64,000 nucleotides of DNA from assembly GCA_002787635.1 (NCBI GenBank), contig PCXK01000007.1, forward strand, positions 252,676 through 316,675. Direction: 5' to 3'. This stretch comes from Alphaproteobacteria bacterium CG11_big_fil_rev_8_21_14_0_20_39_49 (GTDB lineage: Bacteria > Pseudomonadota > Alphaproteobacteria > Rickettsiales > UBA6187). Numbering within the stretch: position 1 is the stretch's first letter; every line of letters starts with the position of its first letter. The translations under genes and the position numbers were made by a program. This document shows positions 1 to 9,292 of this stretch, piece by piece. The notes beneath the pieces are model-generated. The model made no database searches. It saw nothing but the letters and a program-made list of their open reading frames with translations, and was not told where the DNA came from.

Positions 1-3
1 GAT

Positions 4-1479
4 TTGGAGATATCTTTGCAGGAACATATAGGTCAACGCACAGATGCTAACAGAGCGGGCGTATGGCCGGGACTAAGTGAGGAGGATTTTGAGCTTATCG
101 CCAAGCAGGGCTTCGGTGATGGGACAAATGCCTATGCTCATTCTATGGCTTGGTTCAAGGGTCATCTATATGTAGGTACTACCAGAGGCAATTTTGCCCT
201 GATGAGAAAAAGGCTGCCAATCGGTATGGATCCATGGCCTATCGAGTGTCCTAAAGACCCTTTTGACCTTGGGCTTAATTCCGAGATATGGCGTTATAAC
301 CCGAAGAATAAAAGCTGGAAAAAAGTTTATAGGTCTCCTGATATAAAGGGAAGTAACGGAAAAATAATACCTGAGTCTTTAGGGCATCGCGGCATGGTGG
401 TTTTTAAAGACGCATTATATGTTACTACATGGTCGCCTGCGGCGGGTCCGGGACCTTTGATACTAAGAAGTGAAGACGGGATTAATTATGATGTTACATG
501 TGAACCCGGTTTGATGGGGTTGCCTGTGACGGCTATCAGGACTATGGTAGAACATAAAGATAAGCTTTATACCACGCCTTCAGGTTCAAGAGGGGGCAAC
601 CCGAATGTTGCTTCGCATTCAATAGTTTATGAAAGTGCAGACCCTGCCGGCGGTAATTGGGTTCCTGCCAGTGACTTCGGTTTTGGTGATGCGGAAAATA
701 AAACCGTTTTTGAAATGGTTTCTTTTGGTGAATATCTGTATGTAGGTACTTTTAATCTGGAGGGTTTTCAGGTTTGGCGTTCCGATATGGAAGGGGAAAA
801 GCCGTATAAATGGGAAAAAGTAATCGAAAAAGGTGCATATAGAGGTGAAGAAAACCAGATAGCTTGCAGTATGATGCCGTTCAAAGGGGCGTTATATGTG
901 GGCAGTGCAATACAAGGCGGCGGTGTTGATACGCAAAATAAGGTAGGTCCTGCCGCATCGGAATTAATAAGGATAAATACCGATGGCAGTTGGGATTTGA
1001 TAGTGGGGACTGAGCGTGATACACCCGACGGCTACAAAAAACCTTTGTCGGGTTGGGCGGAGGGTTTTGATAACTGGTTTGCAGGCTATTTCTGGCGTAT
1101 GTGCGAGCATGACGGCTGGTTGTATCTTTCAACATTTGACTGGAGTGTAACACTGCCGTATGCAAAGCGTGAGAGTTGGCCGCAGGAATTTTGTAACGTA
1201 ATTAACAATCTGGGTAGTGAATTTATCCTTAGAAATAATGCAGGTTGCGGTGTATATAGAAGTTTCGATGGAGAAAGTTGGGTACGTGTAACAAATAACG
1301 GTATGTCAAACCCTTACAATATAGGAATAAGGACTTTTGCGTCTTCGCCATATGGTTTATTTGTAGGTACGGGGAATTTGTTCGGTCCAAAAGTATGGTC
1401 GTTTAAAGAAGAGCGTTATGTAAATAATCCGCGTGGCGGGTGTGAGGTGTTCCTCGGAAATAAGAAAAAAGCGTTTTGA
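4..1479 (+). CDS. Beta-propeller-like repeat protein of unknown function; the frame is open to the window start, so the 5' end may be truncated
   Basis: About seven recurrences of a blade-like pattern (GHLYVGT, ALYVTT, KLYTTP, YLYVGT, ALYVGS, WLYLST, GLFVGT), each followed by a W/Y-R...W..V strand. No signal peptide or RTX GGxGxD repeats seen. Lies 12 nt upstream of the next gene. Confidence 0.5.
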   Translation: MEISLQEHIGQRTDANRAGVWPGLSEEDFELIAKQGFGDGTNAYAHSMAWFKGHLYVGTTRGNFALMRKRLPIGMDPWPIECPKDPFDLGLNSEIWRYNPKNKSWKKVYRSPDIKGSNGKIIPESLGHRGMVVFKDALYVTTWSPAAGPGPLILRSEDGINYDVTCEPGLMGLPVTAIRTMVEHKDKLYTTPSGSRGGNPNVASHSIVYESADPAGGNWVPASDFGFGDAENKTVFEMVSFGEYLYVGTFNLEGFQVWRSDMEGEKPYKWEKVIEKGAYRGEENQIACSMMPFKGALYVGSAIQGGGVDTQNKVGPAASELIRINTDGSWDLIVGTERDTPDGYKKPLSGWAEGFDNWFAGYFWRMCEHDGWLYLSTFDWSVTLPYAKRESWPQEFCNVINNLGSEFILRNNAGCGVYRSFDGESWVRVTNNGMSNPYNIGIRTFASSPYGLFVGTGNLFGPKVWSFKEERYVNNPRGGCEVFLGNKKKAF

Positions 1480-1491
1480 TAAGAGGTTATA

Positions 1492-4005
1492 ATGAGAAAC
1501 CAATCGGATATACAAAATGAAGAACGTCAGGTTTTCATAATTCCGCCTGTTATCGTAAAAGATATAGGCGGGAAAAAGCTATTACTCCTGCGTGCCAAAG
1601 GTTCGGGTGAATATCATCTGGAACTGGGAGAAGATGTTATATTTAAATTAAAGGAATGGGAATACCATGCTTTGAACGCATTATTTTCATTCGGCGGTGA
1701 TAAATATGACACATTACTTGTAAACACTAATGACAGGTTCGGTCTTAGCCTTACACGGTATGATATTGACGTGTTGCTCGACAGGATAGCAAAAAGAAGG
1801 CTTTTTGATAAAGATAACGCACCTAAACACCCTCTTACCAAGCCTTTTTATGAAGGTACTGCAAAAATAGAAAATATTGCCGGTAAAACGGCAAATAATA
1901 ATTTTACTGCCGGAGTTAGAAAAAAGGTATCGGGGAATTATAATTTAAAGGAAAAGATTACTTCCGTTTATTCACGGATTAAATCTGATGCAAAAGCTTT
2001 CTTTAAAGTAAATGAACAATTTACCGATGAGATTCAAGGTGATGATGACCTAAGTGATATTCAGATAGAACCTGAGGCTGCAAATTTTTCGGTGTTATTT
2101 AATCCGATGAGGTTTTTAAGAAAACATAATTCGCTAATATCAAAGGGGCGTTATCTTCTTTACGCATTGCCGGTATTATTTATTGCTTCACTTGTGATAC
2201 TTTCCAATAACCCGCAAATGATAAGCCACGACCTGCCGAGTGCGATAAGCGGATTCGGACTTATTGCCCACATAGCTTTCGGATTGGTAACCGTCAGTGC
2301 TTTTGTAACATTTGCAACTTCTGCCGTTGCGTTTTCTTATACGGCGACGGTTAAAGCAATATCGGTAGTTTATTTTTTCGGATTTATCCCTCGTTTTATA
2401 CCTGTGATAGAAGATACGGAAAAACTTAGCCGTGAGCAAAAAATGTGGGTTCACGCAACCTCATTGCTTGCACGTTTGGGGTTATTCGGTGTTGCCGTGT
2501 TAATGTGGTATAATTCAAGGCATCTGGGTGGAGTGATATCGGAATTTTTTGCGTTTTTATCATTTACGGCAATATTGTCGTTTTTCGTTGCTGCTTGCCC
2601 GTTCTATAAAAGCAGCGGATACAGGTTCTTAGTGCAGTTACTTAACGAACCTAACCTATGGGGAAAATCGATAACGGCATTATTTAATAAGGTGAACAAA
2701 GATGTTTATTCGCCTTCGGACAATAATGTTTTAGTTGCTTATGCTATTATATGCGTCTTTTTTACGTTTGCCCTTGCTGCTGCTGTGTTTGCAATGGCAT
2801 ATCACTGGTTTGAGATGGAGATAGGTAAAAATGCTCTCTTTATCGTATTTGCTCTGGTTGTGGCGTTTTTCTTAAGGCTGTCTAAGGAAGTAAAGAAAAT
2901 TAACGAAGAATATAAGCGTAACCTGAACTTTGTGCGTTGGCGTGAAGGGGCTTTCCCGACAGTTGTAGAGGAAGTGAAAACGGACGAGGAAAAGCCCGAC
3001 TACAGAAAAAAATACCTGCTTATTGCATCGGTAGTGCTTTTGCTGGTTCCGTATAATTATCAGCCGAGCGGTCAGGTGGTGATTATGCCTATTAACCAAC
3101 AGAAGCTAAGTGCCGATATAGCCGGTATAATAGATGAGGTTTATTACGAAGGCGGAGAGTTTGTAAGGCAGGGGACTGTTATCGCTAAGTTATCAGTGCA
3201 TGATTATGCAGCACAACTGGCTATCTTGAAGGCTAAGCGTGAAGAAAAAATTGCACAGATAAACTTTCTAAAGTCTATGCCTACTCCCGAGCAGGTGGCA
3301 GTGGCGGAAGAAAAGCTTGAGCTTGCCCGTGTGAGTGCAAAATATAGTCAGGCAGAATGTAACCGTCAAAAGCCGTTGCATGATTCGGGCGGGATATCCG
3401 AATCGCAAATGGCCATTATTGAGGAACAATGTGCGATTGACCGTCAAAATATAATGATAGCCGAAGCCAATCTTAATGAAATTGCGGCAGGTGCGTCTTA
3501 TGAGGAGATAGCCGCAGCGGAACTTTCCTTGCTGCCTCTTGAAGCTGAAATAAGGCTTTATGAAGATAAAATAGAGCGTAGTCATTTTAAAATGCCGTTT
3601 GACGGTAAGCTTACAACTTTGGGCTTAAAAGAAAGGAAAGGGCAGTTCCTTGAACTTGGCTCGCCGTTGGCGTCGGCTCATGATGACAAGCAGTTAAAGG
3701 CTATTTTGAAAGTACCTGAAGATGAGCTTTCATATATTAAGGTGGGTTCTGAAGTTGATGTGAAAACTGCCGCTTATCCGGGTAAGACATTCAAAGCCGT
3801 TGTTTCGGTTATTGAGCCTGATGTTGAGGAGCATGAAGGCAAAAGAATGATAAGCATGATAATTTCATTCAACACTAATGAAAAACTGCTAAAATCCGGG
3901 CTTTCAGGTTATGCGAAAGTTGATGGCGGCACTCAAATGTTAGGCGAAGTGTTGCTTACCTCTATAATGAAATTCGTTACAGTTGAACTTTGGGCATGGA
4001 TTTAA
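1492..4005 (+). CDS. Fusion protein: soluble N-domain, polytopic membrane domain (about 8-9 TM segments) and C-terminal HlyD-family membrane-fusion (periplasmic adaptor) domain
   Basis: C-terminal about 300 aa shows the HlyD pattern: a TM anchor (LLIASVVLLLVPY), a barrel-sandwich start (GQVVIMPINQQKLSADIAGIIDEVYYEGGEFVRQGTVIAKL), long coiled-coil heptads, then a second beta region (FKMPFDGKLT...GSEVDVKTAAYPGKTFKAVVSVIEP). Residues about 220-480 are hydrophobic helices. No HExxH, Walker A or Walker B motif. Confidence 0.65.
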   Translation: MRNQSDIQNEERQVFIIPPVIVKDIGGKKLLLLRAKGSGEYHLELGEDVIFKLKEWEYHALNALFSFGGDKYDTLLVNTNDRFGLSLTRYDIDVLLDRIAKRRLFDKDNAPKHPLTKPFYEGTAKIENIAGKTANNNFTAGVRKKVSGNYNLKEKITSVYSRIKSDAKAFFKVNEQFTDEIQGDDDLSDIQIEPEAANFSVLFNPMRFLRKHNSLISKGRYLLYALPVLFIASLVILSNNPQMISHDLPSAISGFGLIAHIAFGLVTVSAFVTFATSAVAFSYTATVKAISVVYFFGFIPRFIPVIEDTEKLSREQKMWVHATSLLARLGLFGVAVLMWYNSRHLGGVISEFFAFLSFTAILSFFVAACPFYKSSGYRFLVQLLNEPNLWGKSITALFNKVNKDVYSPSDNNVLVAYAIICVFFTFALAAAVFAMAYHWFEMEIGKNALFIVFALVVAFFLRLSKEVKKINEEYKRNLNFVRWREGAFPTVVEEVKTDEEKPDYRKKYLLIASVVLLLVPYNYQPSGQVVIMPINQQKLSADIAGIIDEVYYEGGEFVRQGTVIAKLSVHDYAAQLAILKAKREEKIAQINFLKSMPTPEQVAVAEEKLELARVSAKYSQAECNRQKPLHDSGGISESQMAIIEEQCAIDRQNIMIAEANLNEIAAGASYEEIAAAELSLLPLEAEIRLYEDKIERSHFKMPFDGKLTTLGLKERKGQFLELGSPLASAHDDKQLKAILKVPEDELSYIKVGSEVDVKTAAYPGKTFKAVVSVIEPDVEEHEGKRMISMIISFNTNEKLLKSGLSGYAKVDGGTQMLGEVLLTSIMKFVTVELWAWI

Positions 4006-4008
4006 ATA

Positions 4009-5487
4009 ATGAAAAAAATAATCTATATTATAACATTCTTATTTGCAGCTACTCAATATTCTTACGGTGCAAGCCTGAAAGAAGTTCTGGACGTAGCTTT
4101 GGAAAAAGATCCGTTATTAAGTAGTGCCAGATATAAAAGCTATGCGACAAGAGGGGACAAGACAGAGGCTTGCGGAAAGCTGTTCCCGCAATTGTCGGTG
4201 GATAGTGCCTATATTGATTATAATCAGGATAAGGCAGGCTCCGTTTTGGGCAGCGGTACGGCTAATACCAACGGTGTAATTGACGGTAGCCAGACTTCGA
4301 TAGGTCTTACTTTAAACCAGACATTGCTGGATTTGAACAAGCTCGCCGATTGTAAAATGTGGCGTGCGTCGGTAAGCCGTGATGATGCAGGATATGAAAT
4401 AGCGATGGAAGAGCTTATCTATAGGGTTGTGTTGAGCTATTTGAATGTGTTGTCTGCACAAAGCGACCTAAGTTCCGCAAATAGTGAAGTTAGATTGTAT
4501 CGGGAACTTAAAAAAGAAAAAGAACACGCTTTTGAAAGGGGGGTTGTAAGTCAAAGGGAGTTTTTCTCCGTCAGTGCTAAGCATGATAATGCCATTGCAA
4601 ATAAAGAAAAGGCGGCAAATGATTTTATAACCGCAAAGGAAAGGCTAAAGAACCTTTATGATACCGATATACCGAATGAAAAGTTATTAGTTATAAAAGA
4701 CGGTGTGGTATTGAGTCTTGTTGAGGAGGCTTCGCCGGAACACTGGGCAGATGTTGCCGAGCAGTCGAATCTCGGTTTAATAAGAAGTGAGCTTTCCGAA
4801 GAAGTTTATAAGTACGGAATGAAGATGGAGCAGTCAAGGTTCCTGCCTACTGTTGACGCTTTTGCTAACCATACCGATTATGATAGCGATTTTGACAGGA
4901 ACGGCACTCTTGATAACGGTAATTTTTCAACCGAGACAATCGGTGTAAGGCTAAACTGGAAGCTATTTTCAGGCGGAAGTGATTACGGCAGAGTTAGGGC
5001 GGCAAAGAACCGTTACCTGTCGGCACAGCAGGAGGCAGCCGCACAAAGGGATATGGTGCGGATAGATGCAAAGAACTCTTCAAGAGGTTTGATTGTTTTG
5101 AAATCCAAGATAGAAGCTTCAACTACATTATTGGAAGCTGCCCGCCTTGAATTTGAAGCCGTTAAGAAAGGTAGTGAATCAAAGACTAAAACCAAGTCAG
5201 ACCTGTTAGAGGCAACCCTGAATTATCTGGACGCAAGAACGCAGCTCAATAAAGCAAGATATGATTATGTAGTGGGAGTTATGGATTTTTGGAGGTCGAT
5301 AGGTTCGTTATCGGTGCAAAGTGTCGAGCAGATAGATTCCTTATTCATCGCTCCTAAAGATGACATAATAAGAATGTCAGGTGTTTTTGAAAGTAAGACC
5401 GGTTTCAAACAGTCGGGGCAAAATGAAGATATTTTGATGGAGTTGTTGAAATCATTCGGGAACCGGATAAATGATTTTATGATATAG
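4009..5487 (+). CDS. TolC-family outer membrane channel protein
   Basis: Signal peptide (MKKIIYIITFLFAATQYSYG) followed by the typical OEP opening LKEVLDVALEKDPLL. Two-repeat helical architecture, 492 aa. Starts 3 nt after the HlyD-fusion gene. Confidence 0.8.
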   Translation: MKKIIYIITFLFAATQYSYGASLKEVLDVALEKDPLLSSARYKSYATRGDKTEACGKLFPQLSVDSAYIDYNQDKAGSVLGSGTANTNGVIDGSQTSIGLTLNQTLLDLNKLADCKMWRASVSRDDAGYEIAMEELIYRVVLSYLNVLSAQSDLSSANSEVRLYRELKKEKEHAFERGVVSQREFFSVSAKHDNAIANKEKAANDFITAKERLKNLYDTDIPNEKLLVIKDGVVLSLVEEASPEHWADVAEQSNLGLIRSELSEEVYKYGMKMEQSRFLPTVDAFANHTDYDSDFDRNGTLDNGNFSTETIGVRLNWKLFSGGSDYGRVRAAKNRYLSAQQEAAAQRDMVRIDAKNSSRGLIVLKSKIEASTTLLEAARLEFEAVKKGSESKTKTKSDLLEATLNYLDARTQLNKARYDYVVGVMDFWRSIGSLSVQSVEQIDSLFIAPKDDIIRMSGVFESKTGFKQSGQNEDILMELLKSFGNRINDFMI

Positions 5488-5565
5488 GTATTTTTTTATG
5501 TTGAATTTATAGGAGTGTTAGTAAATATAGGTTTTGTACAAATTGCAATGCAATCTTTAATTGTA

Positions 5566-5773
5566 TGTCATGCTGAACTTGTTTCAGCATCTTATTGATA
5601 GTATTTTGACTTTTCCAGAGTTAGAATTGCAATCCCCGACTTGTTCGGGGATCTGAATAAGTTTAAATGAGATCCCCCTATAATTTGCTTCGCAAATTCG
5701 GGGGATGACAGCATTGTTGAAAAGTTAATTTACTATACTCGGAAAAGACCCTGAAACAAGTTCACCGATGACA
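5566..5773. repeat. Family-A palindromic element split by a nested family-B-like element
   Basis: Left arm tgtcatgctgaacttgtttcagcatct (5566-5592) and right arm gaccctgaaacaagttcaccgatgaca (5747-5773) are 154 bp apart, against about 15-17 bp in intact 69-bp copies. The interior holds atccccgacttgttcggggat and cccctataatttgcttcgcaaattcgggggatgaca (family-B arm). Confidence 0.7.
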
Positions 5774-5808
5774 AAAAAATGAGTAAATAAAAAAGAAAGG
5801 ATAAAAAA

Positions 5809-6654
5809 ATGTTTGATGATAAAGTGGGAAATCATATTGTATGTATCGTAATGGATAGTTGCCGTTTCGATTCTTTCCTTGCTGCCAAAACCCCTAATAT
5901 AGATAAGCTGGGAGCGGTTCAAAGAAGATATTCCTATGCCAGTTGGACGGCTCCTTCACATAATACTTTTGCTATGGGGCTATTGCCTCATGCCAGCCCG
6001 ACTAAAATATTAGCATCGGAAGTATATAAGGACGAGTATATTGACTGGGAAGAAAGAACCGGTTTTGAAGGGCTTGATTTCAAGACATTCCTGCCTCATT
6101 TATCTTTGCCGAAAGTTCTGGCAGGCTTAGGTTATGAAACTATCGCAAGGGTATCAATGCCTGTGCTTAACCCTAACACCACCTTTGCCCGTGACTTTGA
6201 TGATTATAAACTTATGCCGGGTCATAATATGTTCAAGGAAATGGTAGAGGAGATTGATTTGCCTCCTGATGAGGATATTATGAATTATTATTTCCTTAAT
6301 CTTGGCGAAACACATTACCCTTACCGACTGGTTGATGAAACCCTTCCGATAATTTCCGGTGTGCATGGTGTTGTTAAAAAAATGAATAATCCGAGTACGG
6401 CTAATCAGCTTCAATGGAGCGAGTTCATTACCGATGCCAAGATGAAGATGTTAAGAGATGCACAAATAAGAAGCATTGAATATGTTGATGAACAAATAGG
6501 CATTTTATTTGATAAGGCAGACAAGGATAGGACGCATTTTATTGTTACGGCAGATCACGGAGATCTGTTCGGTGAAGATGACTTCTTCGGTCATGGTCCT
6601 ATATTCCATGAAAAAGTATTTGAAGTGCCTTTTGTCGAGGGGAAATTGAAATAG
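5809..6654 (+). CDS. Alkaline-phosphatase-superfamily metalloenzyme (nucleotide pyrophosphatase/phosphodiesterase-like or sulfatase-like)
   Basis: N-terminal metal-site-like motif IVCIVMDSCRFDSF, nucleophile-region-like SWTAPSHNTFAMGLLP, and distal metal motif VTADHGDLFGE. No sulfatase C/S-x-P-x-R formylglycine motif. Confidence 0.55.
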   Translation: MFDDKVGNHIVCIVMDSCRFDSFLAAKTPNIDKLGAVQRRYSYASWTAPSHNTFAMGLLPHASPTKILASEVYKDEYIDWEERTGFEGLDFKTFLPHLSLPKVLAGLGYETIARVSMPVLNPNTTFARDFDDYKLMPGHNMFKEMVEEIDLPPDEDIMNYYFLNLGETHYPYRLVDETLPIISGVHGVVKKMNNPSTANQLQWSEFITDAKMKMLRDAQIRSIEYVDEQIGILFDKADKDRTHFIVTADHGDLFGEDDFFGHGPIFHEKVFEVPFVEGKLK

Positions 6655-6664
6655 GTTATTTGCT

Positions 6665-7570
6665 ATGAAGCCACCACTATTTCTGCTTGCACCTCCTAGG
6701 TCATATACTTCGATAATTAACGCTATGATAGGGCAGCACCCCGAAGCTTACGGCTTGCCTGAGCTTAACCTGTTTTTTTATAATACCCTATTGGAGTTAT
6801 GGAACCCCGATAGTAAGGAAGTTCCGTTTGATAAAAAATCAACGCACGGAATGCTAAGAACGGTTGCGGAAATATTTACGGGCGAGCAGACCGACAGGTC
6901 TATCGAATGTGCAGAACACTGGTGTGCGGCAAGGCAGAATGTCCCTGTTGGTGAGGTGTTCAATGATATAAGGAGGCAGCTTGACCCGCTGATACCTGTC
7001 GATAAAAGCCCTTGGTACACACTTGATATTGAGTTTTTGATAAGAATAATAGAATCTTGCCCCGATGCAAAATTTATTCACCTTACCAGACATCCGATAA
7101 AGCAATGTGAGTCTAACCTTAGTTATGTTGATGCTACTATTGTCAAGATAATGAACTCAGTTGACTACACAAAGGATAAGGCAATTCTTGAGCCACAAAT
7201 GATCTGGCATGATATGAATATAAATATCCTGAATTTTCTGGAAAATTATGTTCCTAAAAACCAGTATATAAGAATGCGTGGTGAAGAGGTGATGGAAAAT
7301 ACCGAAGCCGAATTAGTCAAGATGTGCAGGTGGCTGGGGATACGTGACGATGCTGAGGCTATTGATGAGATGATGCACCCTGAAAGGTCGTCTTTTGCTA
7401 ATTTTGGTCCTTTAACAGCATTATTCGGTAATGATACGAATTTCTTAAAAGGTTCTAAGTTTAAAAAACACAAACCTGAATTGCCGGATCTTGATTCAAA
7501 GCTGCCATGGCGTGATGATGAGGGATTAAAGCCGCAGGTAAAAGAATTGGCACGTGAGTTCGGGTATTAG
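6665..7570 (+). CDS. Sulfotransferase family protein (PAPS-dependent)
   Basis: 5'-phosphosulfate-binding-loop-like LLAPPRSYTS near the N-terminus and a 3'-phosphate-binding-like motif HLTRHPIKQCESNLS. About 300 aa. Starts 10 nt after the preceding gene. Confidence 0.7.
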   Translation: MKPPLFLLAPPRSYTSIINAMIGQHPEAYGLPELNLFFYNTLLELWNPDSKEVPFDKKSTHGMLRTVAEIFTGEQTDRSIECAEHWCAARQNVPVGEVFNDIRRQLDPLIPVDKSPWYTLDIEFLIRIIESCPDAKFIHLTRHPIKQCESNLSYVDATIVKIMNSVDYTKDKAILEPQMIWHDMNINILNFLENYVPKNQYIRMRGEEVMENTEAELVKMCRWLGIRDDAEAIDEMMHPERSSFANFGPLTALFGNDTNFLKGSKFKKHKPELPDLDSKLPWRDDEGLKPQVKELAREFGY

Positions 7571-7573
7571 ATT

Positions 7574-8395
7574 ATGAGAAAGCATATAGGCAACATTACT
7601 ATACGTCAGTCGAAAATGGTCGAGAAAGACCCTAAGCGTGAAGAAATGCGTCAGAATCTTGTTAAGGAATACAGGTTGGAGGAGAGTAAATTAAAGGCTA
7701 TAAAAGAGCTAAAATCCATATGTAATAATGAAAATATAACGGAAGTTTTCCTGAATTTATTCGGCAAAGACGGAAAACCGCCAAAGCATATAACCATGAG
7801 GTCGATGATTGAGCAATATGAGTTATTGGACGCAAGAAGGTGGTGGTTTATTACTTTCCGTAAGGAGTTAATGGCTAAATATAAACAGCTTGACCCTGAC
7901 GGCTATAATGAAATTCTTCGCAGAGAAGAAGAACATGAGCGTTTGCGAAAAGAGAAAATGGAGCAGTCTTCTAAAGATTATATTGAAAAAAATGACAGAG
8001 TTCTAAAGCCGATAGTACAAAAAGGAATAAGGGATACTTTATTGAGGCGGCTTAATGTGCAGCTTAAGAAAAGGTCGCTAGGGCTTGATATGAGCAGTGC
8101 GGAGGTTTTGGGTAGTAAAAAAATCGAAAAAACCATGTGCTATCTGTTTACAGAATATATAAGAAATCCAAAATATAAGCTAATTACCGACCCTGTGGAA
8201 AGATGTAAAAAAATCAAAAGGGAAATACAGTGGCTTGATGCATTAATTGTTGAAGTTGAAGAAGGGCTGATAGACCTTAATGAGCTTGTCGAATCAGCCT
8301 ATATATATTTACAGAAAATATCTGCGGTAAATCATTATCCGGGTGAGTGGAGAAAAATAAGGGAAGAAAATCTGCTGCGAATGATAGTATGTTAA
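7574..8395 (+). CDS. Hypothetical K/E/R-rich, predicted helical protein; last gene of the island operon
   Basis: Long ORF starting 3 nt after the sulfotransferase stop. No recognisable motif, TM segment or signal peptide. Confidence 0.4.
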   Translation: MRKHIGNITIRQSKMVEKDPKREEMRQNLVKEYRLEESKLKAIKELKSICNNENITEVFLNLFGKDGKPPKHITMRSMIEQYELLDARRWWFITFRKELMAKYKQLDPDGYNEILRREEEHERLRKEKMEQSSKDYIEKNDRVLKPIVQKGIRDTLLRRLNVQLKKRSLGLDMSSAEVLGSKKIEKTMCYLFTEYIRNPKYKLITDPVERCKKIKREIQWLDALIVEVEEGLIDLNELVESAYIYLQKISAVNHYPGEWRKIREENLLRMIVC

Positions 8396-9215: not shown

Positions 9216-9292
9216 TGGCGGGAGTGACGGGATTCGAACCCGCGACCTCTGCCGTGACAGGGCAGCGCTCTAACCAGCTGAGCTACACCCCC
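9216..9292 (-). tRNA. tRNA-Asp (anticodon GTC)
   Basis: The reverse complement gggggtgtagctcagctggttagagcgctgccctgtcacggcagaggtcgcgggttcgaatcccgtcactcccgcca folds as a cloverleaf. Anticodon loop ctGTCac, T-loop ttcgaat, encoded CCA. Confidence 0.92.

Follow-up and report, generated by a model that had tools for sequence, protein, structure and literature searches.

The question raised by the window examined here, a 64,000-nucleotide stretch of Alphaproteobacteria bacterium CG11_big_fil_rev_8_21_14_0_20_39_49 (contig PCXK01000007.1 of assembly GCA_002787635.1, forward-strand positions 252,676 to 316,675), is what a sulfotransferase dependent on 3'-phosphoadenosine 5'-phosphosulfate (PAPS) and a small enzyme of the alkaline phosphatase superfamily do side by side in an export operon. 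We call the genes for these two proteins E and D, respectively, and their neighbours A, B and F. The answer that we hold with moderate confidence is that D and E are the sulfation genes of a cluster of about 25 kb for the synthesis and export of a lipid, where E would sulfate a hydroxyl of the synthase product, which would then be exported. Each component taken singly is of a familiar type (a PAPS sulfotransferase near CurM/Ols, Pfa-like synthases, HlyD-type and TolC-type proteins and an alkaline-phosphatase-superfamily enzyme). For their combination, with the E clade and its helical partner, a threonine-type D, protein A and a fused protein B, no description was found in the literature.

Both genes were intact open reading frames (ORFs) on the + strand, the TAG stop of D (6652-6654) being followed after 10 nt by the ATG of E (6665). 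The motifs read by the initial annotation were all found (MDSCRFD, TAPSH and ADHGD in D; PRSYTS and RHPIKQCES in E), and its placement of the pair inside an export operon agreed with the HlyD-type and TolC-type genes lying upstream on the same strand (Table 1). D and E are not chance ORFs, since E had 542 relatives (E ≤ 1e-3), many of them 55-60% identical over their full length, and D had orthologues that were 56-77% identical.

E matched the Pfam family Sulfotransfer_3 (8.9e-21; 75.6 bits vs. a cut-off of 27). The proteins of its own clade, of about 301 aa and 48-59% identical to E, were spread over several phyla, with carriers including Rubrivivax, Ideonella, Neptuniibacter, Desulfobulbaceae, Syntrophales, Myxococcota, Nitrospira, Ca. 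Brocadia and a Verrucomicrobium. In an alignment of the family (n = 12), R12, S13, T15, S16, E33, S115, R142 and S150 were invariant and K114 nearly so. The first four residues make up the loop for the 5'-phosphosulfate of PAPS (PRSYTS), R142 and S150 belong to the 3'-phosphate motif RHPxxxxxS, and E33 and K114 are the glutamate of PEL and the lysine of DKSP. Both PAPS-contact motifs were thus not only present, as first noted, but invariant in the family, and the alignment revealed no loss of key catalytic residues.

When a profile of the 12 family members was compared with all PDB sequences, the best matches were the sulfotransferase domains CurM-ST (4gbm, 1.8e-23) and Ols-ST (4gox, 1.7e-21), over residues 5-265, whereas heparan 3-O-sulfotransferase was matched at 1e-6 and tyrosine sulfotransferase at 4e-3, the latter only over residues 5-54, which hold the PAPS loop. 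Protein tyrosine and carbohydrate, between which the initial annotation had hesitated as acceptors, therefore become the less likely ones, the nearest solved relatives being polyketide sulfotransferases, and they are also disfavoured by the embedding of the pair in a polyketide/fatty-acid synthase cluster. The PAPS motifs of E aligned to the same motifs in CurM-ST, and E33 and K114 aligned with the catalytic Glu and Lys of that domain, whose catalytic residues are reportedly Glu60, His62 and Lys133; the position of the His of PELH was taken by Asn35 in E and by Cys in other members. This replacement, an identity of about 25% to true CurM-type domains from related clusters, and the fact that E is a stand-alone protein, not embedded between the acyl carrier protein (ACP) and the thioesterase of a synthase module, indicate that E is not a plain CurM-type enzyme. 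Among the longer relatives of E only fusions to a small helical protein were found and none to synthase modules; fusions of D to E were also sought among longer proteins and were absent, those of 570-591 aa being E plus the small helical protein. As judged from its sequence, E is a PAPS-dependent sulfotransferase of the cytoplasm, and its clade stands apart from CurM-ST and Ols-ST while being related to them; a hydropathy scan gave no hydrophobic segment.

The cluster runs from C10:236221 to position 8395 of the window, with spoT at its left border and a gene for tRNA-Asp at its right border. Its genes follow the order PfaA-like synthase, KS-AT-DH (ketosynthase, acyltransferase, dehydratase) synthase, free ACP, NPP-type phosphodiesterase, alpha/beta hydrolase, A, B, TolC, D, E and F. 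The domains of the PfaA-like synthase are ER-KS-AT-ACPs-KR-DH, with the enoyl-reductase-type domain (ER) at the N-terminus and a ketoreductase domain (KR) behind the ACPs, whereas the KS-AT-DH protein of this genome was smaller than its orthologues by about 200 aa, with no detectable KR or phosphopantetheinyl transferase (PPTase) domain. The NPP-type gene (L084:11748-13322) overlapped the stop of the ACP gene (L084:11443-11751) by 4 nt. No PDB sequence match was obtained for the NPP-type protein, which might have the phosphopantetheine arm as its target or serve in product release. The pairing of ACP and NPP genes recurred in 13-14 loci.

From this domain content, the synthases would build a long acyl chain with hydroxyls on the ACPs. 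E, whose family is clear, would then move sulfate from PAPS to one of these hydroxyls. F would probably act with E, and probably in physical contact with it, since the small helical protein that it resembles accompanies the sulfotransferase in 49 of 50 loci and is at times fused to it. The resulting anionic lipid would leave the cell via B and the TolC-type channel.

In order to see how general this arrangement is, we considered 80 loci with E relatives from reference genomes of at least eight phyla, and counted genes within 10 kb of the sulfotransferase in the 50 loci that had at least 8 kb on both sides. B and a helical protein of about 143 aa were each found in 49 of these loci and the TolC-type gene in 44, followed by D (30), the KS-AT-DH synthase (24), cysD and cysN/C (23 each) and A (21). 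Five genomes without a synthase in the 10 kb (two Rubrivivax, Ideonella, Thermomonas and Cognatiluteimonas) all carried A, an orthologue of the KS-AT-DH protein (50-53% identical) and a PfaA-like synthase of about 2770 aa (1,959-2,795 aa) 5-27 kb away on the same contig, A itself lying 14-27 kb from the sulfotransferase. The presence of the synthases and A on the same contig in 5/5 of these further genomes argues for one cluster type of 25-35 kb. The low-GC members displayed the order synthase, ACP, NPP, hydrolase, A, B, D, E, small protein, esterase and TolC. No pumps of the ABC, RND or MFS types were found among the conserved cluster genes.

Some clusters carried additional genes. Those of Neptuniibacter and Thiodiazotropha included a second sulfotransferase, fused to an ACP and of the true CurM type (2.6e-59 to 4gbm), as in Neptuniibacter marinus (L010:13853-15172) and similarly in L011, L013 and L036. 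Such ACP-sulfotransferases were present in 8/20 loci without D vs. 1/30 with D, and they indicate that sulfation of a carrier-bound acyl chain belongs to this cluster type. In the clusters of Burkholderiales, the neighbours of D and E included a true cysQ and a gene for a surface-type protein with DUF11 repeats (L030:6886-7620; L056:6614-9106; L007:8470-9960). We found no description of this cluster in the literature, papers on Pfa-like gene clusters included, and the locus of the pair is not one with an established role, such as a known lipopolysaccharide or capsule locus.

The view that sulfotransferases are uncommon in bacteria of this sort did not hold, since Sulfotransfer_3 proteins were present in 20 of 41 genomes (40 relatives and the genome under study), with up to 11 in each. 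Rarity is limited to the E type, which occurred in 2/41 of the same genomes and in neither same-genus genome; together with the tRNA at the border, this suggests that the cluster was acquired by transfer. A second, unrelated Sulfotransfer_3 protein of the genome (341 aa, C14:23014-24039, - strand) lay beside an EptA-like phosphoethanolamine transferase. Many Sulfotransfer_3 proteins of the relatives measured about 500-650 aa, and one contig held a tandem array of at least nine.

PAPS synthesis, on which any such role depends, is encoded in the genome: cysH, cysD and a bifunctional cysN/C were located at C10:74-78 kb, and cysQ was found above its curated cut-off (287 bits). Half of the related clusters carried their own cysD and cysN/C, which suggests that they consume much PAPS and need a supply set aside for it. 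These in-cluster cys genes accompanied D, being present in 21 of the 30 loci with D vs. 2 of the 20 without it, a tendency and not a statistic, as the loci are related.

With regard to D, Pfam matches were obtained to Sulfatase (2e-8), Metalloenzyme and Phosphodiest. The best NCBIfam match was the STM4013/SEN3800 hydrolase (NF038075), at 68.9 bits far under the cut-off of 250. The family is rare (of 401 genomes sampled from the phylum, 4 had a member), and its long relatives were either tandem D domains or uninformative. In a profile alignment, Thr47 of D was aligned with the formylglycine Cys84 of the sulfatase PsS1_NC (C84A/C84S in the chains) and His51 with the Arg of the signature, the loop T47-A-P-S-H51 replacing the C/S-x-P-x-R of sulfatases. 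The initial suspicion that D is not a true sulfatase was therefore borne out by the Thr at the position where sulfatases carry formylglycine. Across the wider family (49 members) D16 and H169 were invariant, T47, D249 and H250 nearly so, and H262 conserved. Thr47 is predicted to be the nucleophile and D16, D249 and H250, with H169 and H262, the metal ligands. A Thr nucleophile with an Asp-His pair marks, in this superfamily, phosphoryl-transfer enzymes (NPP, PafA, EptA, LtaS) and not sulfatases; with Thr at the nucleophile position, an Asp and an Asp-His site, D would belong with the Thr-nucleophile phosphoesterases and transferases.

An AlphaFold2 model of D reached a pLDDT of 92.9 when built from a 49-sequence alignment including distant relatives; one built from a shallow alignment of close orthologues gave only 55.6 and was set aside. 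In fold comparisons (Foldseek, VIA-align), sulfatases and EptA/MCR-1/EptC were tied as best matches (Z about 16-17.6). This fold, shared by sulfatases and phosphoethanolamine transferases, and the Thr nucleophile lead us to expect action on a phosphate ester or anhydride, by hydrolysis or transfer, and not on a sulfate ester. A hydropathy scan of D gave no hydrophobic segment, no signal peptide and no N-terminal polytopic membrane domain, and its absence of hydrophobic segments places D in the cytoplasm.

Of the 52 orthologous loci that extended far enough for a judgement, 45 had D immediately upstream of E, with a gap of 6-60 nt in most of them. A distant subfamily (43-54% identical, 60 metagenome loci, L115-L181) was never found next to an E-type sulfotransferase, and no recognisable sulfotransferase was seen in these loci. 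The genes cysC, cysN or cysD were present in 15 of the 60, often with a stand-alone APS (adenosine 5'-phosphosulfate) kinase 3-35 nt from the D relative. Other neighbours included two NPP-type proteins of 630-704 aa, a membrane-type sulfatase-family protein of 710-722 aa, a GT9 protein, a carbamoyltransferase and an O-antigen-ligase-like Wzy_C protein (loci including L122, L128 and L171). The APS kinase and cys genes beside distant relatives make sulfate activation, and not one acceptor, the common denominator of the D family. D would thus be an accessory partner of the phosphoesterase type that travels with sulfate-activation genes and occurs in about 60% of the clusters; its absence from five genomes carrying the cluster shows it to be accessory and not essential. 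Two roles appear to us about equally plausible, neither reaching an even chance: D may act in the PAPS cycle on a phosphorylated nucleotide or by-product, though not by simple CysQ-type removal of PAP (3'-phosphoadenosine 5'-phosphate), or it may tailor or release the lipid or an ACP-bound intermediate. Some other activity is a clearly weaker third candidate.

Several observations weigh against the proposal of an exported sulfated lipid. The product and the sulfated hydroxyl, if any, are predictions from the genes; E shares only about 25% identity with the CurM type and its clade has Asn or Cys for the His of PELH; and, with no ABC, RND or MFS pump conserved, export is read from B and TolC alone. 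The DUF11-repeat protein beside D and E in Burkholderiales leaves room for a non-lipid acceptor. Moreover, D was absent (E ≤ 1e-10) from five genomes carrying the cluster, the true cysQ of the Rubrivivax clusters, about 2 kb upstream of D, opposes the simplest role in the PAPS cycle, and the PfaA-like synthase of this genome contained an in-frame TAG (L084:2287-2289; C10:240286-240288) ten codons before the active-site GHSYG of its AT domain, so that the pathway may be broken here, although an assembly error is possible, with a run of 21 N nearby.

Among the alternatives, an activating role for E as in CurM and Ols would have it sulfate the beta-hydroxyl of an acyl-ACP, after which a hydrolase would release the chain with loss of the sulfate and CO2 to give a terminal-alkene hydrocarbon. 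CurM-ST and Ols-ST are indeed the nearest solved relatives of E, a free ACP is encoded in the cluster together with one or two alpha/beta hydrolases, some clusters also hold ACP-sulfotransferase didomains, and the hydrolase sequence alone aligned with the CurM thioesterase 3qit over residues 21-243 (8e-9). With a family profile, however, generic esterases ranked first and 3qit fell outside the top 60, so that the hydrolase was rejected as a CurM-type thioesterase; the KS-AT-DH protein had no detectable KR; a hydrocarbon hardly needs a dedicated TolC route, which is kept in 44-49 of the 50 loci; and clusters apparently requiring CurM chemistry add a separate CurM-type ACP-sulfotransferase, whose coexistence with E means that E probably does something else. 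For these reasons a retained sulfate is preferred to elimination, which we regard as unlikely. Less probable by far is that E sulfates a protein or peptide, as RaxST does, with F or the DUF11-repeat protein of Burkholderiales as the substrate secreted via B and TolC. A sulfotransferase, a small protein, an HlyD-type adaptor and TolC do resemble the rax system (raxX-raxST-raxA-raxB with raxC), the small protein is an obligate neighbour of the sulfotransferase (49/50) and sometimes fused to it, and the DUF11 surface-type protein stands beside D and E in some loci. Nonetheless, the similarity of E to tyrosine sulfotransferase was weak (4e-3) and confined to the PAPS loop, no peptidase-ABC transporter was found among the conserved genes and no HExxH in the membrane domain of B, the small protein displayed neither signal or leader features nor a conserved Tyr, one would hardly expect a substrate to be fused to the enzyme that modifies it, and synthase genes were linked to the cluster in every genome tested.

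Whether the cluster still functions in this genome is a separate matter, and that it is the decaying relic of a horizontally acquired island, with D and E intact and no product made, we consider doubtful, if somewhat less so than the elimination route. In its favour are the in-frame stop that interrupts the PfaA-like synthase within its AT domain, the end of the cluster at tRNA-Asp, the occurrence of the E type in 2 of 41 genomes and neither same-genus one, and the shortened KS-AT-DH protein without a detected PPTase domain. Against it, all ten other cluster genes were open and well conserved, the GC content of the cluster (40-42%) matched that of the genome (39%), and the second synthase has an AT domain of its own. 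The lone stop, moreover, lies near the N-run of a metagenome assembly and may be an error: the run (L084:2523-2543) begins 235 nt past the TAG and masks whether the frame continues, with no demonstrated frameshift, and an exact look-up of both pieces of the synthase gave no match in other assemblies. As for D, a PAP 3'-phosphatase clearing the inhibitory by-product of E, one of the functions first envisaged, would fit its position directly upstream of E, its co-occurrence with in-cluster cys genes, the APS kinases abutting distant relatives, and the fold matches to PafA and phosphopentomutase, both Thr-nucleophile monoesterases of the superfamily. This idea has been weakened by the true cysQ in the same cluster as D in Rubrivivax, the cysQ of the genome itself, and the five cluster genomes in which D is dispensable; D also has a different fold from the inositol-monophosphatase fold of CysQ-type PAP phosphatases (TIGR01331 model), and to our knowledge no PAP phosphatase of the fold of D has been described. 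We rate it as quite unlikely, a shade below the elimination route.

The exported sulfated lipid that we favour has partial precedents. CurM-ST and Ols-ST, of curacin A and cyanobacterial olefin synthases, share the fold and PAPS motifs of E and also work with KS-AT synthases and ACPs; E differs from them in being a stand-alone protein and not a domain between ACP and thioesterase, in the Asn or Cys for the His of PELH, in a long and strongly conserved C-terminal tail (228-301), in its small helical partner and export module, and in coexisting with true CurM-type copies in some clusters. In the heterocyst glycolipid system, a PfaA-like iterative synthase of the HglE type makes a long-chain hydroxylated lipid, a tailoring enzyme attaches a polar head, and an HlyD adaptor with TolC (DevBCA-HgdD) carries it to the envelope. 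The logic is that proposed here, and the DevB model TIGR02971 gave a weak match to B; the head would be sulfate instead of sugar, no ABC part such as DevC/DevA is conserved, and B has a polytopic domain of its own. Mycobacterial sulfolipid-1 (Pks2, Stf0, MmpL8) likewise combines a sulfated lipid, type I synthases and a dedicated exporter, and Pks2 was among the weaker NCBIfam matches of the synthases of this cluster, whereas Stf0 is a member of a different sulfotransferase family that has trehalose as its acceptor, and the exporter and accessory genes differ.

The relatives of D can be compared in the same manner. With EptA/MCR-1/EptC and LtaS it shares the catalytic fold (Z 15.7-16.9), the Thr at the nucleophile position and the Asp-His metal pair, whereas it has no membrane domain or signal peptide, falls short of the length of their catalytic domains by about 60 residues, would be cytoplasmic and has a sulfatase-patterned loop, T-A-P-S-H. 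The type I formylglycine sulfatases gave its best fold matches (Z to 17.6) and its best sequence matches in the C-terminal half, but D differs from their C/S-x-P-x-R in this loop and is about half their size. The STM4013/SEN3800 hydrolase is, like D, a minimal superfamily member of about 260 aa; D falls under its cut-off and in a different gene context, that family sitting with radical SAM genes.

More tentatively, and as a possibility we consider clearly less probable than sulfation of a lipid in this cluster, these genes may direct the synthesis and export of sulfated polyketide or fatty lipids of a class not described so far, the cluster having been transferred between genomes over at least eight phyla, among them that of a host-associated bacterium labelled as Rickettsiales. 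D would then stand for a branch of the sulfatase fold that is new, cytoplasmic and of the threonine type, and that is dedicated to PAPS-dependent sulfation modules, either as a PAPS-cycle enzyme or as a transferase of phosphoryl or sulfuryl groups with the lipid as its substrate. Few bacterial sulfated lipids are known, and mycobacterial sulfolipid-1 and the sulfonolipids of Bacteroidetes matter at host interfaces. The cluster is an orphan with its own PAPS supply and TolC route, and its carriers are as far apart as Burkholderiales, Nitrospirota, Myxococcota and a bacterium of Rickettsiales type. Its parts of interest without an assigned function are the miniature "sulfatase" D, the propeller A, the helical F and B, which joins an HlyD adaptor to a protease-related domain without HExxH. 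With Rubrivivax gelatinosus, Neptuniibacter and Ideonella as culturable carriers, both the product and the individual roles are open to direct test.

Table 1. Genes and other features at the start of the window, with positions counted from its first nucleotide
Feature	Position	Strand	Description
Gene A (3' part)	1-1479	+	Protein of ~490-500 aa; true start 30 nt before the window, L084:14647
Gene B	1492-4005	+	HlyD-type membrane protein; Pfam HlyD_D23 and HlyD_3
TolC-type gene	4009-5487	+	Outer-membrane channel; Pfam OEP 4e-47, TIGR01844 1.7e-52
Intergenic gap between TolC-type gene and D	5488-5808	.	321 nt, filled with palindromic repeats; hairpin 5570-5590
Gene D	5809-6654	+	281 aa, alkaline-phosphatase-superfamily protein; stop TAG 6652-6654
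Gene E	6665-7570	+	301 aa, PAPS sulfotransferase; ATG at 6665
Gene F	7574-8395	+	273 aa, helical protein; 3 nt after E
tRNA-Asp	9216-9292	-	ARAGORN; right border of the cluster

The remaining conserved proteins of the cluster deserve a separate description. F was a tandem, diverged copy of the helical protein of about 143 aa that trails the sulfotransferase in 49/50 loci, and four protein clusters (570-591 aa; P0297-P0300) consisted of the sulfotransferase fused at its C-terminus to two repeats of this protein; no hydrophobic segment was found in F. B was composed of an N-terminal cytoplasmic part, about seven hydrophobic segments (221-467) and an HlyD-type periplasmic adaptor (about 520-810). 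Its residues 201-473 gave a weak NCBIfam match to an HExxH intramembrane metalloprotease. No HExxH was found in this protein or in the membrane domain of any of 50 members, the lone HE..H string among them being at residue 112 of an over-extended ORF (L049), outside the membrane domain, and B was therefore rejected as a site-2-type protease.

Protein A was the best-conserved gene product of the cluster, 62-75% identical across phyla and 42-48% in three outlying loci. No Pfam, NCBIfam or PDB sequence match was obtained for it, and its automatic name in Atlas was "putative exo-alpha-sialidase". It is a cytoplasmic protein resembling a beta-propeller, and the hydropathy scan gave no hydrophobic segment. 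At 8 kb to the left of the cluster, an ankyrin-repeat protein of 499 aa was encoded on the - strand (C10:226980-228479; L101:2981-4480), which fits a host-associated lifestyle.

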